A stretch of DNA of 64,000 nucleotides from Thainema sp. (GTDB lineage: Bacteria; Cyanobacteriota; Cyanobacteriia; Phormidesmidales; Phormidesmidaceae), in contig JBQLZK010000001.1 in NCBI GenBank assembly GCA_052168235.1, positions 224,001 through 288,000 on the forward strand, given 5' to 3'. A model generated the notes under the pieces. It made no database searches. It saw only the letters and a program-made list of their open reading frames with translations, and was not told the DNA's origin. Numbering within the stretch: the first letter of the stretch is position 1; every line of letters starts with the position of its first letter. Positions 45,626 to 51,767 of the stretch are shown here, piece after piece. Position numbers and translations under genes: made by a program.

Positions 45626-45804
45626 GGTTGCGTCTCTGCCCAAATTTCGATGCTTATTATAAAGCCTATACAAAATCCCAGAATTATTTTCTGTCAAAGC
45701 CTTGCGGTGTGAAGTCTGAACGGGAAACAGTTCTGGGATTTTGCGTAAATTCGTTACAGTTAAGAGAACATTTTTGATCATATTTGCGATCGCAAACGAA
45801 GCCT

Positions 45805-46389
45805 ATGCCCCGGCCTAAGGAATTTGAGCGCGAAGTCGTTCTCGAAAAAGCAATGGAACTCTTTTGGCAGAAGGGGTATGAGGCGACATCGGTGCAAGAC
45901 CTAGTGCAGCACATGGGCATCAACCGGGGCAGTTTGTACGACACATTCAAGGACAAGCATCATCTGTTTTTAGCGGCAGTATCGCACTATCACGAAACGG
46001 TGGTGAAAGATGCGATCGCACGATTGGAAGCGCCCAGTGCATCGCGGTCAGCGATTGTGGAGCACTTCAACCGCATGGTGGACTGTTTGACAGGTGATGA
46101 AGCTCAGCGGGGCTGTCTGATGACCAATACGATTGTGGAACTGGCGGTGCAGCATCCCGATATCGCGGCTCAGCTCCAGATGAGTTTGCAGCGGATTGAG
46201 CGGGCGTTTAAGGCGGCATTGGCTCGCGCTCAGGCAGCGGGGGAATTGGCGGCTGACAGAGACGTAGCGGATCTGGCCCGCTATCTAGTTTGCTGTGTGC
46301 AGGGACTGCGCGTCATGTGCAAAACCAACGTCAGTCGCGAGCAGTTTCAGGCCACGGTTGATCTGATGCTGTCGGTGCTGGATTCATGA
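45805..46389 (+). CDS. TetR/AcrR family regulator
   Basis: MPRPKEF...FWQKGYEATS...GINRGSLY.TF.DK, GCLM.N. Confidence 0.92.
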   Translation: MPRPKEFEREVVLEKAMELFWQKGYEATSVQDLVQHMGINRGSLYDTFKDKHHLFLAAVSHYHETVVKDAIARLEAPSASRSAIVEHFNRMVDCLTGDEAQRGCLMTNTIVELAVQHPDIAAQLQMSLQRIERAFKAALARAQAAGELAADRDVADLARYLVCCVQGLRVMCKTNVSREQFQATVDLMLSVLDS

Positions 46390-47696
46390 TGCTATTGAAT
46401 GCGGAGGAACTGCGATCTCGCTTTTTTCGGCTAGCCGTGGTCAACGTGCTATCAAATTTGCTGGTGCCGCTGGCCGGATTGGCGGATACGGCTTTTTTGG
46501 GGCACTTGTCCGACATTCGGCACTTAGCGGGTGTCAGCCTTGCAACGGTGCTGTTCAACTATATTTACTGGACATTTGGCTTTTTGCGAATGGGGACGAC
46601 GGGCACGACCGCGCAAGCCGTTGGTCGCCAGGATCAGCTTGCGGTCTATGCCACGCTGTTGCGGAACGGGCTGCTGGGGATTGCGATTGGTCTGGTGATT
46701 CTAGTCTTTCAGGAACCAATTCGGCAGATTGGCTTTGCCCTGCTGAGCGCCACGCCCGAGGTGGAACAGTCGGGACAGGCTTATTACCGAGCCTTGATTT
46801 GGGGTGCTCCGGCCACGCTGCTGAACTTTGTGCTGCTGGGCTGGTTTTTAGGCCGGGCGGAAGGCAGGCGAGTTTTAGTTCTGTCGATGGTGAGCAACGG
46901 CTGTAATGTTTTGCTCAACTACTGGCTGATTGTCCGGTTGGGCTGGGCTAGTGCTGGAGCAGGGGTGGCGACGGCCTGTAGTCAGTATCTGATGCTATTG
47001 ATTGGCCTGGGCTTTGTGCTCCGCGAGTTCCCGTGGTCAAAGCGGCGCTTACTCACTGCTCAGCTCTGGGATTTGAGCGTTTTGACCGATACCCTGCGGC
47101 TGAATCGCGATATTTTGATTCGCACGTTTGCCTTGCTGTCGGTCTTCGCCGCCTTCACCAATATCAGTGCGGCGATTGGCACACTGACGCTGACGGCGAA
47201 TGCGCTGCTGCTGCAAATTTTGTCCCTGGCGGCCTACTTTATTGACGGCTTTGCCTTTGCAACTGAAAGTTTAGTCGGCATTCTCAAAGGCCAAGATGAT
47301 CATCGACAAATGCGCCATCTACTGCGATTGGCGGGCGGCGTTAGCTTTGGGCTAGGAATTGCGATCGCACTTCTCTTTATGCTTTTCCCCCAGCCGCTCT
47401 TCGGTATCCTAACCAGCCATGACAATGTCATCAGCAGCGTTTCTCGCTATGTACCTTGGCTGTTGCCCCTCCTGGGTTTTGGCTCTCTAGCCTATATTCT
47501 GGACGGTTATTTTCTGGGATTAACCCAAGGCCCCATTCTGCGCCGCGCATCTATTGTGTCGGCAATTGTCGGCTTTGCACCGCTGGCAGCTCTCGCCTGG
47601 TGGCTGGAAAGTACGCCACTTTTATGGACAGCGCTAACCTGTTTTATGGCCGCTCGTGTGATCACCCTCGGTCGCAACGTAGAGTATCGCTCATAG
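46386..47696 (+). CDS. MATE family transporter (DinF-like)
   Basis: VPLAGLADTAFLGHL, FLRMGTTG.TAQA, DILIRT, AYFIDGFA.A.E; ATGA overlap with tetR. Confidence 0.9.
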   Translation: MMLLNAEELRSRFFRLAVVNVLSNLLVPLAGLADTAFLGHLSDIRHLAGVSLATVLFNYIYWTFGFLRMGTTGTTAQAVGRQDQLAVYATLLRNGLLGIAIGLVILVFQEPIRQIGFALLSATPEVEQSGQAYYRALIWGAPATLLNFVLLGWFLGRAEGRRVLVLSMVSNGCNVLLNYWLIVRLGWASAGAGVATACSQYLMLLIGLGFVLREFPWSKRRLLTAQLWDLSVLTDTLRLNRDILIRTFALLSVFAAFTNISAAIGTLTLTANALLLQILSLAAYFIDGFAFATESLVGILKGQDDHRQMRHLLRLAGGVSFGLGIAIALLFMLFPQPLFGILTSHDNVISSVSRYVPWLLPLLGFGSLAYILDGYFLGLTQGPILRRASIVSAIVGFAPLAALAWWLESTPLLWTALTCFMAARVITLGRNVEYRS

Positions 47697-47801
47697 TCTG
47701 ACTCAGTTGAATGTCGTTTCTGGAGTAAATATATCTTGAGGAATGATAAACAAACTCTAAACAGCCTGAGCCTGAAATTATAGGGGTGGTTATACTGAAT
47801 T

Positions 47802-47924
47802 TTTCTGCCTAATTCCCCAAATAGGAATGTTAGGCTGACGAATTTCTATCTAATCATCTAGATAAGGTGATTAGGCTGATGGATTTCTACCTAATCACCC
47901 GAATAGGTGTGTTAGGCAGAAAGT
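47802..47924. repeat. Three tandem 41-bp hairpin units with CTAA...TTAGGC arms
   Basis: Units start at 47802, 47843 and 47884; consensus TTTCTRYCTAAT-N16-TTAGGCWGA. Confidence 0.85.
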
Positions 47925-47971
47925 TTCCCTCCAATTAATAGTTAGACCTCCAATACGAGTAGGTAGACAAG

Positions 47972-49177
47972 ATGGAGGATGAAATTCTAGAAAAATCGGT
48001 TTCCCGTATAGAAAGTTCTCACAGAAACTCAGCAATTTTGCGACGAAAGTTACTGGAGAAGCATAATTATGCTTGTACTATTTGCGGGGTAAAAAATGAG
48101 GATGTTCCATTAGAGATTGCTCACTTAGTTCCATTATATAAAGGCGGAGAGACAAGTGAGGATAATCTTACACTCCTCTGTCCAAACTGTCATAGAGTAT
48201 TAGATTCTCAACCCAGAGAGATTGAGTTTGTAGATTTCCTATCAGAGCTACTGAACAATCATCCAAACTTTGAAAACGTAAAAAAAGAGGTTTTATTAGG
48301 ATCTGAAACCCGTTTCCGGGGCGACATCCTTGTAAAGAGAAAAGAAGGAAGTAGGCAACAAACTTTAGTGATAGAGTGTAAAACCTCGAGGATCTTACAC
48401 TCTGCCACCTTGAAAGATATAATTGCCCAGTTAAATACCTATCAAAACCTTTGTGATGGGTGCTGCATGGTTTTAGCTGTAGCAGGAACATTACTCGATC
48501 AAGATTTAGTGTTACTGCAACAGCACATGATTGAAGTATGGGATCTTGAGTATATAGCAGTAACCTTCGCGGCTCAAATTAAAGAATCCCCAATAAGCTA
48601 CTACAAAGCTTTACTACTTGCTCGTCTTGCACGTGCATCAAACTCATTCAAAGAGCAAAGCTTTATTAGTTTCCTGAAAACATGTCAGCCAGGAAAGAAA
48701 GATTGCTATGTATACCAAAGCCTCATAGGTGACATTTTGGAATATCTATTTACGCCTCCATTGGCAAAACCCATTCCGGAATTATCAGACAGAGTTCTAG
48801 CAAATAGACGAGATTTTATTTTGCCGAACTATGTGGAAAAGGGTTTCTGGGCATTCATGCGAGAAAAATATGCGGCAGATTATATTGTTGTGGATGCAAA
48901 AAATTACACGAGAAAGGTAAAGAAAAATGAGGTATTACAAATTGCTAATTATCTAAAGCCTCACGGAGCAGGACTTTTTGGGATCATTATTTGCAGAAAA
49001 GGAGGAGATTCGACTGGATGTGAACACACACTACGTGAACAATGGTTAGTCCACAAGAAGCTAATATTAGTATTGGATGATGGAGATATTGAGAAGATGT
49101 TAATTTCTAAATTAGATGGCAACCCTCCCGAGGATTTAATCAGCCAAAAGATTGAGCAATTCAGGTTGTCAATGTAG
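47972..49177 (+). CDS. HNH + two PD-(D/E)XK (Mrr-like) domain nuclease, cassette 1
   Basis: CTICG...AH..P...GG....NL..LCPNCH; RGDILV...IECKT; RRDFIL...VDAKNY; visibly AT-rich, no HIP1. Confidence 0.8.
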   Translation: MEDEILEKSVSRIESSHRNSAILRRKLLEKHNYACTICGVKNEDVPLEIAHLVPLYKGGETSEDNLTLLCPNCHRVLDSQPREIEFVDFLSELLNNHPNFENVKKEVLLGSETRFRGDILVKRKEGSRQQTLVIECKTSRILHSATLKDIIAQLNTYQNLCDGCCMVLAVAGTLLDQDLVLLQQHMIEVWDLEYIAVTFAAQIKESPISYYKALLLARLARASNSFKEQSFISFLKTCQPGKKDCYVYQSLIGDILEYLFTPPLAKPIPELSDRVLANRRDFILPNYVEKGFWAFMREKYAADYIVVDAKNYTRKVKKNEVLQIANYLKPHGAGLFGIIICRKGGDSTGCEHTLREQWLVHKKLILVLDDGDIEKMLISKLDGNPPEDLISQKIEQFRLSM

Positions 49178-49263
49178 TTCTAACAAGCACGTTGCAGCGG
49201 AATGAGTAAAGCTCTTGGTGCTTAGTCTATACTACTTGCATCCGCTGAACGTGATCGTTAGGC
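49178..49263 (+). other. attC site 1 (86 bp)
   Basis: R'' TTCTAAC; CACGTTGCAGCGGA pairs with TCCGCTGAACGTG leaving one extrahelical base; R' GTTAGGC. Confidence 0.88.
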
Positions 49264-49407
49264 GGCTAAATTTCCCTATTAGTAACGGCAGTCTTTTCAC
49301 GATTTGAGCATTAATCCGCATCAAGATTTCCAGCTCACGGTCGGGGGTGAAAGCGCCGCTGCAAGTGAGTGGAGCTAAAATTGAGAAGCAAGTAATTTGC
49401 AAGGATT

Positions 49408-49692
49408 ATGACGCTGAACTTAGATTTGCCACCCGAACTAGAGCAGTACCTCTTGCAAGAAGCCGAGCAGCAAGGTCTATCGGTTGAAGCAATGACCCTA
49501 CAGCTTTTGACGAACTCGCTTCAACTCAGGCAAAAACAAGCTGAAGCCATTGATATGCTTCAGTCCTGGATTGACGATGAGGACGTTGAAGAGCAACAGG
49601 AGACAGGCGAGTATTTGGTTCAGGTGCTGGACGAGGATCGGCTGTCTGACCGCAAGTTATTCCCGCTTGAAATGAAAGGGATTACATGGTAG
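49408..49692 (+). CDS. Putative antitoxin, cassette 2
   Basis: MTLNLDLPPELEQYL..EA...GLS.E RHH-like start, acidic tail, overlaps the PIN gene. Confidence 0.78.
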   Translation: MTLNLDLPPELEQYLLQEAEQQGLSVEAMTLQLLTNSLQLRQKQAEAIDMLQSWIDDEDVEEQQETGEYLVQVLDEDRLSDRKLFPLEMKGITW

Positions 49693-50141
49693 AGCGTTTG
49701 ATTGTATTGGATACAGGGCCAATCGGCCTGGTTACCAATCCCAAACTCTCTTCCCAAGGTGTTGCTTGTAACCAGTGGCTTCAGTCTCATCTCAAGTTGG
49801 GGAACCGGATAATCGTTCCGGAAATTGCTGATTATGAAGTGCGTCGCGAGTTGTTGCGAGCCAATAAAAAGAAGGGTCTCACTCGGCTAGATAGCTTGTG
49901 TCAAAGACTTGAGTATTTACCGATTACAACTGCCTCAATGCGGCAAGCGGCTGAACTATGGGCACAGGCGCGACAGCAGGGACAGCCAACGGCAGGGGAT
50001 AAAACCATTGACGGTGACATGATTCTGATTGCTCAGGCTAAGACTCTGGGAGCCTCAGATGTGGTGATCGCTACAACTAACGTGGGGCATTTATCGAGGT
50101 TTATTGCAGCGGACTTATGGCAGAACATTCTTCCCAATTAA
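49686..50141 (+). CDS. PIN-domain (VapC-like) toxin, cassette 2
   Basis: IVLDTG, EIADYEVRRE, D.D.ILIAQA, ATTNVGHL. Confidence 0.88.
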   Translation: MVERLIVLDTGPIGLVTNPKLSSQGVACNQWLQSHLKLGNRIIVPEIADYEVRRELLRANKKKGLTRLDSLCQRLEYLPITTASMRQAAELWAQARQQGQPTAGDKTIDGDMILIAQAKTLGASDVVIATTNVGHLSRFIAADLWQNILPN

Positions 50142-50146
50142 CCGCC

Positions 50147-50232
50147 ACCTAACACCTCGTTGGTGCGGACAGAACAAAGGTTATCGGTAAGAGTTCAGGT
50201 TTATCTGCCGCCGCTACACTTCACCGTTAGCT
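50147..50232 (+). other. attC site 2 (86 bp)
   Basis: R'' ACCTAAC, L'' GTTGGTGC, partly degenerate L' GCTACAC, R' GTTAGCT; same length as attC1. Confidence 0.8.
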
Positions 50233-50301
50233 GAATTCTTTTTTGGCTTGGGACGTACAGAGAGGCTATTTGCTGGTATCTGAGGATGCTCGTTCTAGTA
50301 G

Positions 50302-50329
50302 CTCTGGTATGACTGAGGTATAACCAGAG
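50302..50329 (+). promoter_or_regulatory. Putative toxin-antitoxin promoter/operator
   Basis: CTCTGGT...ACCAGAG inverted repeat containing GGTATGAC/GGTATAAC direct repeats and a TATAAC -10-like hexamer. Confidence 0.55.
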
Positions 50330-50354
50330 AATAGAACTTTAAGTTAAGGCCACC

Positions 50355-50591
50355 ATGAAAACTGCAATTTCGCTGCCAGATTCAGTTTTTGAGCAGGCGG
50401 AAGCACTTGCTCAGCAGTTAGGAGTGTCGCGCAGTGAGCTTTACACAAAAGCGCTACAGGCATACCTAAAAAAGTACAACCGTGAGCAAATGTTGCTCAA
50501 GTTGAACCAAGTTTATGGTACAGAGTCCTCTGAACTTGATCCAGTGATGGCAAGGATGCAGTTTATGTCTTTGCCCCACGAGGATTGGTAA
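50355..50591 (+). CDS. RHH antitoxin (ChpI/MazE-type), cassette 3
   Basis: MKTAISLPDSVFEQAEALA..LGVSRSELY..AL; ends EDW overlapping the toxin. Confidence 0.88.
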   Translation: MKTAISLPDSVFEQAEALAQQLGVSRSELYTKALQAYLKKYNREQMLLKLNQVYGTESSELDPVMARMQFMSLPHEDW

Positions 50592-50929
50592 TGTATCGGG
50601 GAGAAATTTGGTGGGCTAACCTACCCGATCCAGTGGGTTCAGAACCTGGATATCGTCGTCCCGTCTTGGTGATTCAGGATGATACATTTACCCAGAGCCG
50701 GATTCGCACTGTTATCGTCGTTATCATTACTTCCAATATTCAGTTAGCGGAAGCACCAGGCAATGTACTATTACCGCGTGAGGTATCCGGTTTGTCGAGA
50801 GATTCCGTTGTAAATGTCTCTCAAATTCTCACGCTCGATAAGACGTTTTTGGTTGAGCGTATTGGTTCACTACCGGACTACTTGCAGGAGGAGATAGACG
50901 AGGGGCTACGAACAGTTTTGTATCTCTAG
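50585..50929 (+). CDS. mazF: PemK/MazF family toxin, cassette 3
   Basis: RGEIWWA.L..P.GSEPG.RRPVLVIQ.D.F, SGL.RDSV.NVSQI.TLDK. Confidence 0.9.
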   Translation: MVMYRGEIWWANLPDPVGSEPGYRRPVLVIQDDTFTQSRIRTVIVVIITSNIQLAEAPGNVLLPREVSGLSRDSVVNVSQILTLDKTFLVERIGSLPDYLQEEIDEGLRTVLYL

Positions 50930-50935
50930 CAACGC

Positions 50936-50960
50936 CAGCTGCCCAGCCAATGGAGCGGCG
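50936..50960 (+). other. Decayed left arm of a third attC
   Basis: CAGCTGCC-CAGCC-AATGGAGCGG where CAGCTAAC (complement of GTTAGCTG) is expected. Confidence 0.45.
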
Positions 50961-50987
50961 AATATTAGTTTTTTATGAGCTGAGTTG

Positions 50988-51767
50988 TTAATCATCGACT
51001 AGCAAGAAGCGGCGATTCAGTGGCTGCACTGGGCGGGCATTCAGCGGGAAAATATCGCTGAATAGGCCAATTTGAGCTGGAGACACTTCAGTCGGCGTTT
51101 GGAACATCACCCATTTCACAATCTCGGAGCAGGGTGGCGTGGTCAGCGAGCCAAAGTAGCGATAGGTACTTTGATCGGCTGGCAGAAGCTGAGCAATGTC
51201 AATATTGACGCCAGGAATCGTGTCTTCAGCGCTGGGCTGACGCGGCATGGCGTCCCAAATGGGCTTCAGAACTCGATTTTCCGCACCTTCTTTCAGAAGA
51301 ACGCCCAGCACCGCCAAGTTGCCAGCGGCATTCTTATGCACAAAATGAGCCTCCATCGGCATCGTCTCACCCTCTACCGTATGTTCGCTGGGATGGTGAA
51401 AGTGAAACTGAAGCAAGTCATACCGCTCACCGTCAATCAGAATGTAGCTGCCCGGATCGGTGTTAATTTGAATCGCGTGGCCATTGTTGACGATGCGTAG
51501 GGGAACAGACTGATAATGCACACTTACGTTAGCCATATCCACCGCAATCCCTTCATGCAAATCAATCGGAGACTGCTGCATGCCAGCACCACAGGCTTGG
51601 TACTCCGGCGATAGATCATCCCATTCGCTGGGATTGTTCTCGCCGACATAGCCCCATTCGGCTCCTTGTTCACTTGCGATCGCATCTTTTAAAGACAGGT
51701 TGGTCAGACTCACGACCGCACTCATCGCAGCCAGCTTGAACATTTGTCGCCGATTGATCCCAGTCAA
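50988..51767 (-). CDS. ecaA: Alpha-class carbonic anhydrase with Tat signal
   Basis: NRRQMF twin-arginine, QSPID, QFHFH.PSEH, E.HFVH, GSLTTPPCSE. Confidence 0.9.
   Translation of the reverse strand: MTGINRRQMFKLAAMSAVVSLTNLSLKDAIASEQGAEWGYVGENNPSEWDDLSPEYQACGAGMQQSPIDLHEGIAVDMANVSVHYQSVPLRIVNNGHAIQINTDPGSYILIDGERYDLLQFHFHHPSEHTVEGETMPMEAHFVHKNAAGNLAVLGVLLKEGAENRVLKPIWDAMPRQPSAEDTIPGVNIDIAQLLPADQSTYRYFGSLTTPPCSEIVKWVMFQTPTEVSPAQIGLFSDIFPLNARPVQPLNRRFLLVDD

Follow-up and report, generated by a model that had tools for sequence, protein, structure and literature searches.

Phased palindromic units at the head of a cassette array in Thainema sp.: a probable attI platform of a cyanobacterial chromosomal integron

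Results

Genes and features of the locus

The DNA analysed here is a 64,000-nt stretch of Thainema sp. (contig JBQLZK010000001.1 of assembly GCA_052168235.1), referred to below as the window, and coordinates given without a locus name are positions in it. On the + strand, 46386-47696 encodes a MATE transporter that scored 537 bits on the NCBIfam GntT model (the guanitoxin-cluster efflux model; cutoff 525). Its neighbours are a TetR regulator (45784-46389) and a WecG-type glycosyltransferase, and the MATE and TetR genes are probably an ordinary DinF-like MATE pair. Behind the MATE gene lie a block of tandem repeats, a core site, three cassettes and, on the opposite strand, a carbonic anhydrase gene. 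The features are as follows.

47721..47801, + strand: left part of the platform (blastn copies in the same genome begin at ~47721)
47802..47842, + strand: palindromic unit 1, 41 nt (5' arm TTTCTGCCTAA, 3' arm TTAGGCTGA)
47843..47883, + strand: palindromic unit 2, 41 nt (best-matched hairpin of the three)
47884..47924, + strand: palindromic unit 3, 41 nt (in relatives the palindrome extends outward, TTTC..CCTAA / TTAGG..GAAA)
47924..47947, + strand: core (simple) site, with left arm TTTCCCTCCAAT, a 5-nt spacer, then G|TTAGAC
47942..49257, + strand: cassette 1, HNH-domain protein (ORF 47972-49177; Pfam HNH, E 3e-11)
~49179-49263, + strand: putative attC1 (R'' TTCTAAC, R' GTTAGGC)
49258..50226, + strand: cassette 2, a toxin-antitoxin pair of RHH-like (49408-49692) and PIN (49686-50141; Pfam PIN, 27.4 bits) proteins
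~50147-50232, + strand: putative and less canonical attC2 (R'' ACCTAAC, R' GTTAGCT)
50227..50990, + strand: cassette 3, RHH (50355-50591; RHH_3) and PemK/MazF-like toxin (50585-50929; Pfam PemK, E 7.6e-29)
~50930-50990, + strand: weak terminal attC-like site at the end of cassette 3
50988-51767, opposite strand: carbonic anhydrase gene (Pfam Carb_anhydrase), before which the array ends

Three palindromic units within a conserved element

A repeat search of the window returned one family of three 41-nt units, arranged head-to-tail at 47802-47924 with spacings of 41 and 41 nt, and TRF reported a sole array of this kind there (period 41, 2.8 copies, score 121). A pattern derived from the units matched the window three times and gave no match in 100 shuffles. 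These results bore out the three 41-bp units described in the initial annotation, and both the exact 11-bp inverted repeat (47802-47812 / 47912-47922) and the GTTAGGC within units 1 and 3 that it had listed were present in the sequence. A half unit ('unit 0') closes the left part of the platform and contains TTATACTGA at 47790-47798; at the core site, the 5' arm of the units appears a fourth time, as the left arm TTTCCCTCCAAT. The linker between units (47836-47849 and its equivalents in alignment A1, described below) is itself palindromic, with GGAAA..TTTCC in relatives, so that the array can be read as a chain of ~20-bp half-units in alternating orientation, with alternative inter-unit hairpins possible. 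No Rfam family reached its gathering score in the window, and the hits in 47600-48100 were at chance level (E 0.24-4).

Blastn searches with the flanks included showed that the units form the middle of a conserved element of ~225 nt (47721-47945), with homology ending at ~47945. About nine copies of the element were found in the same genome (contigs C1, C41, C71, C80, C36, C125, C60, C4 and C56), composed of an ~80-nt left part with TTATACTGA at its end, then 1-3 units, a tail and GTTA. The tail reads TTTC.CTC.AAT, followed by 5-6 nt and then GTTA, beyond which each of these copies differs. With a relaxed pattern, the genome gave 14 matches at five places, compared with 0-1 for the reversed control. 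Of 24 other genomes in the family, 18 carried the element as well; counting the window's genome, 23 of the 41 genomes searched overall had it, with 1-10 matches per genome. In relatives, the left part corresponds to the stretch between the start codon of the integrase gene intI (CAT on the + strand, at the left edge) and unit 1.

Crossover point and cassette array

Seventeen of the 19 platforms of integrase clade A were aligned almost gap-free (alignment A1); L047, with a degenerate end, and L055, with two units, were left out. Both TTATACTGA and the GTT of the core site were invariant in all 17 platforms, and eight different 7-mers began at this GTT. Mean identity was 0.86 over the 20 columns before the GTT, compared with 0.47 in columns 4-16 after it. 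The simple site in the window and its relatives reads CTCYAAT, 5-6 nt, GTTAGNC. In the same-genus genome G001, locus L016 matched the window in two blocks: L016 6-1735 corresponds to 46220-47944 (90.8% identity; MATE gene and element), and L016 2598-3235 corresponds to 50206-50843 (92% identity). The left breakpoint thus fell at 47944 and homology resumed at 50206. Between these shared flanks, G001 carries one methyltransferase cassette, whereas the window carries the HNH and the RHH+PIN cassettes. A short metagenomic contig matched 47871-47945 and then diverged. Taken as sequence comparisons, these junctions show the crossover to be G|TT, between 47941 and 47942, and show turnover of cassettes at the platform between the window and G001.

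The attC sites were called by sequence and fold, and in each cassette compared the R'' box is complementary to the first six bases of its own cassette. Cassette 1 starts TTAGAC and has R'' TTCTAAC in its attC, cassette 2 starts TTAGGC and has R'' ACCTAAC, and the G001 cassette starts TTATGC and has R'' GCATAAC; R' in turn holds the next G|TT. On the bottom strand, attC1 (-18.5 kcal/mol, z -3.47) and the G001 attC (z -2.24) folded into long imperfect hairpins, while attC2 and the terminal site folded no better than shuffles (z -0.64 and z -0.22, respectively). A 2.5-kb contig from a biofilm metagenome carried 47938-49247 (cassette 1) at ~97% identity with unlike DNA on both sides, which argues that the HNH cassette is a travelling one. 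Its protein has, next to the HNH motif, a stretch that weakly resembles HSDR_N.

A gene-less first cassette of ~110 nt, starting TTAAATCG, was observed at L038 ~1722-1840 (contig C41 of the same genome), on contig C80, and in L055 and L056, and is thus kept behind the platform in two copies of the window's genome and in two other genomes. Rfam gave no match on this conserved ORF-less cassette (L038 1400-2300), which could carry a promoter or a small RNA.

Association with the integron integrase

On contigs C41 and C71, the left edge of the element abuts the reverse-complement ATG of the N-terminal remnant of a tyrosine recombinase (a 107-aa ORF on C41), and the same recombinase N-terminus adjoins the element in seven loci of other genomes. 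In L017, an intact and divergent 336-aa ORF directly abuts the element and scored 476 bits on the NCBIfam integron integrase model TIGR02249 (cutoff 265). Matches to the L017 integrase at E <= 1e-20 were present in 103 of 173 genomes of the family, frequently with more than one in a genome, and many were fragments; the window's genome gave one match (E 4.2e-34), and G001 contained an integrase fragment only. Thirty intI loci were taken, two of which had no upstream sequence, leaving 28 for comparison over 450 nt upstream. In 27 of these 28 loci we found tandem units, a half-site, ~7 nt and GTT, followed by unrelated sequence, on a common plan of the intI start, 70-100 nt and 2-7 tandem units. 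Adjacency to intI was therefore found for the element family (L017 and L045; 27 of 28 loci), and comparison across these loci shows the element to be an intI-proximal platform. The window copy lacks this adjacency: its upstream neighbours are the TetR-MATE gene pair, and the sister genome is arranged alike.

A tblastn search of the 205 contigs of this assembly with a 323-aa IntI found no intact intI, the only matches being the N-terminal fragments on C41 and C71. The initial annotation had offered a landing pad for a trans-acting recombinase; the attI-like pad found support, and its partner was not found in the assembly as an intact intI. The ~9 attI-like platforms of this genome carry 1-3 units, several sit at contig ends, and an intact integrase gene stands beside none of them, which points to many decayed or orphan integron heads. 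Since the assembly is split into 205 contigs and platforms lie at contig ends, a hidden intI copy is possible. Because no intact intI was found beside the window copy or elsewhere in the assembly, its present-day activity is doubtful, and the site is either a fossil or dependent on an unassembled or incoming integrase. The window copy is an integrase-less, probably decaying example, and its cassette difference from G001 may predate the loss of intI.

Other integrase loci showed further variation. In L057, which has an intact intI, the platform is interrupted directly after TTATACTGAA by unrelated DNA, possibly through insertion into the unit array. A second integrase clade (L062-L069, L105, L106, L130 and L143) has a conserved palindrome between the intI start and the first unit, e.g., AGTACTAATGTACT in L068. 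This palindrome resembles the cyanobacterial LexA box, which would fit SOS control of intI. On contigs labelled Anaerolineae or Ktedonobacter MAGs (Chloroflexi; L102, L141, L151 and L152), the integrases are 59-71% identical to the cyanobacterial one; TRF detected no array upstream of these integrases, though unit-like arm sequences were visible.

Phasing and sequence of the units across integrase clades

TRF reported a period of 40-42 nt in 29 of 39 platforms of a first set and in 40 of 63 intI-upstream regions from 80 loci, the two sets partly overlapping. The 80 loci span Leptolyngbya, Phormidesmis, Nodosilinea, Pseudanabaena, Tumidithrix, Kovacikia, Acaryochloridaceae, Coleofasciculaceae and others; among the 20 loci without a TRF array, several had weak lag-40/41 autocorrelation or visible units. 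Across 13 loci, the distance from TTATACTGA to the crossover agreed to within 1 nt. The left arm of the core recurred at offsets of 40-41, 81-82 and 121-123 nt (20, 15 and 11 hits, respectively, with at least 9 of 13 identities) and gave few hits elsewhere; as the automatic choice of crossover took array-internal GTTs in many loci, the histogram and the loci with the true core were used for this count. The unit arms varied by integrase clade (CCTAAT/ATTAGG, CCTAAG/TTTAGG, GGCATAAC/GTTATGCC, GGATAAC/TTATCC and others), and the left arm of the core followed the arm sequence of its clade. Units were taken for these comparisons by TRF and fixed-register extraction, the hairpin finder being confounded by inter-unit hairpins.

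The same comparisons bear on the reading that the units are gene-less micro-cassettes with minimal attC sites, stacked at attI by repeated insertion. The unit arms do resemble R''/R' cores, unit number differs between clades (TRF copy number 2.3 to 6.1), and L055 has two units against three in its relatives. However, 17 of 19 clade-A platforms have three units in a register fixed to the nucleotide, and G occupies the crossover position in 14 of 49 units compared with 17 of 17 cores. Position-specific features of the units are also kept across genera, such as the extended palindrome found in the last unit only, the units have no L boxes, and real cassettes always begin after the core and never straight after a unit. 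We consider a stack of micro-cassettes very unlikely.

Folding, covariation and promoter signals

DNA folding of 47800-47945 gave three hairpins on either strand (-22 to -23 kcal/mol, z ~ -4.6), in agreement with the initial annotation, which had each unit fold. Its covarying inner stem did not survive comparison with relatives. In the A1 hairpins, 76.6% of cells were paired, compared with 75.8 ± 1.0% in shuffled data (a level as high was reached in 95 of 500 shuffles), and double-sided change was seen at 11 pairs against 10.3 expected. At the two middle stem positions, unit 1 was unpaired in 13 and 16 of the 17 sequences, and for units 2 and 3 the corresponding counts ranged from 8 to 12 of 17. 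A half-swap test on 27-nt hairpin cores (51 units, 49 in register and 44 distinct) gave -3.35 kcal/mol for cognate and -3.36 kcal/mol for chimeric halves (1032 of 2000 permutations as good). The extended stem of the last unit showed weak covariation (0.169 vs 0.123; 14 of 500 shuffles as high), a value within the tool's false-positive range for related sequences. The 11-bp inverted repeat was paired in 87.7% of cases in relatives, compared with 86.3% after shuffling, its pairing being kept because its sequence is conserved. No compensatory change turned up, which leaves selection at the level of a hairpin unsupported.

On another reading, the units would work folded, either as single-stranded DNA in replication or conjugation or as cruciforms, mimicking the R box of attC, and attI would be partly recognised by structure. 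Each unit is indeed built as an R''-like arm, 5 nt, a loop, 5 nt and an R'-like arm, the three hairpins and the weak signal in the last unit's outer stem fit such folding, and the 3' arms can pair with the next 5' arms to form alternative inter-unit hairpins. However, pairing did not exceed that of shuffles, cognate halves were no better than chimeric ones, and the hairpin cores are weak as DNA (mean -3.35 kcal/mol per 27 nt), with the middle of the stem mostly unpaired. L boxes and conserved extrahelical bases are likewise missing from the units, and the strict 40-42 period and fixed distance to the core suit a protein scaffold on duplex DNA better. Passages of PMC8946536 describe attI as recognised by sequence, as double-stranded DNA, and as co-evolving with its integrase. 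We regard action of the units in folded form as unlikely.

The outer arms of the block, earlier described as attC-like, formed no conserved helix: across the 17 relatives, 49.7% of cells were paired (71.6% after a one-column shift), which did not exceed shuffles, and there was no covariation. This result weighs against the proposal that the whole ~184-bp block is one attC with a repeat-expanded loop. Some complementarity does exist in the window copy between 47776-47785 and 47927-47936, but the arms are not conserved, the block lies 5' of the first cassette and adjoins intI in relatives, and what is kept across genera is its sequence rather than its structure, unlike attC sites. We give a single large attC hardly any credence.

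A role in expression was also considered, with the units forming a structured 5' leader from a promoter at ~TATACT (47792-47797), or operators for a regulator of the divergent intI and cassette promoters. The invariant TTATACTGA holds a 5/6 match to the -10 consensus on the + strand, and in most relatives its complement is a perfect -10 hexamer toward intI; passages of PMC4889954 place Pc and PintI usually in the attI region. However, a scan for consensus promoters and terminators found nothing within the element, and RNA structure found no support in covariation. TATACT occupies that position in just 28 of 91 platforms, other integrase clades have an ordinary 3' arm there, and some clades have TTATAC in every unit, so the motif looks like a half-site variant, and TATACT was downgraded as a cassette promoter. 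A function of the units in expression seems improbable to us; TTATACTGA could double as a -10 box for the cassettes and, on the opposite strand, for intI.

A MITE, a REP/BIME element, a small-RNA gene, a CRISPR-like array and an IS200/605 end with guide RNA were dropped as candidates, given the link to intI and the cassette junctions.

Discussion

We consider it likely that the block is the attI platform of a chromosomal integron of a type found in thin filamentous cyanobacteria, here at the head of three cassettes, with its integrase lost and its units in an accessory role. The earlier suggestion of an attI-like landing pad agrees with the divergent intI that adjoins the element in relatives, with the invariant G|TT and with the cassette swap in G001 at that point. 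Cassettes would be inserted at G|TT (47941|47942) of the core site, and the right arm of the core would be supplied by whichever cassette stands first. Each unit carries two inverted core-like boxes, CCTAA / TTAGG, and the units most likely bind several integrase molecules on double-stranded DNA. In this way the units may hold the site, or shape it, for attI x attC recombination, in the manner of DR1/DR2 of attI1, and the 40-42 bp period would amount to about four helical turns. Because the palindromes are conserved in sequence and phased, follow the integrase clade and recur in the core, we read them as accessory integrase-binding sites on duplex DNA; the absence of compensatory change is as expected if sequence, not pairing, is selected. 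Another DNA-binding protein is a possible ligand of the units. We are doubtful of a more elaborate proposal, in which attI carries a scaffold of several integrases (an 'intasome' with ~four-turn spacing) or R-box-like extruding hairpins that would bridge duplex attI and folded attC, and in which orphan platforms would capture cassettes via an integrase in trans.

The platform resembles attI1 in lying between a divergent intI and the first cassette, in the crossover G|TT of a 7-bp core, and in a simple site of two inverted core-like boxes ~7 bp apart. As in attI1, there are extra core-like boxes upstream of the simple site; by comparison with DR1/DR2, those found here are present, phased and arranged as inverted pairs. 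Passages of PMC8946536 call DR1 and DR2 of attI1 'supplementary binding sites' that favour attI1 x attC recombination, possibly as topological filters, and part of PMC3146285 describes them as core-like direct repeats that most of the environmental attI sites surveyed lack. Unlike attI1, whose whole length is 65 bp, the putative accessory part alone measures ~125 bp here, and in place of two single direct boxes there are 2-6 palindromic units at a strict 40-42 bp spacing and a fixed distance from the core.

The units also recall attC sites (59-base elements) in their R''/R'-like arms and imperfect palindromes. In contrast to attC, they lack L''/L' boxes and a variable terminal structure, their sequence rather than their structure is conserved, they stand upstream of the array instead of behind a cassette ORF, and their crossover G is unconserved. 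The array in the window, with its cassettes, its attC-like sites and no intI nearby, is comparable to the CALIN arrays of PMC4889954, which are discussed in passages of that paper as arising by rearrangement or integrase loss; unlike CALIN, it keeps a complete attI platform at its head. IntegronFinder, as described in part of the same source, searches for exact attI1-3 sequences only, and such a platform would therefore be invisible to it.

Integrons and attC models have been reported for Cyanobacteria in the literature. According to passages of PMC4889954 and PMC4792948, attI sites have been detailed for few mobile integrons and are unknown for most chromosomal ones. No account of an attI with tandem phased palindromes was found in the open full-text literature. 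We file the site as an attI, a known kind, and its accessory architecture of phased palindromes as new.

The practical message of this window is ordinary, namely a decayed integron with toxin-antitoxin and nuclease cassettes. For the family, comparative genomics, a natural cassette swap included, delimits the attI of a widespread cyanobacterial integrase clade at nucleotide resolution. The unusually elaborate and strictly spaced accessory architecture makes this attI a clean system in which to study the function of accessory integrase-binding sites. It also provides a sequence signature for annotating integron heads, including those without an integrase, which current tools report as attC clusters only.
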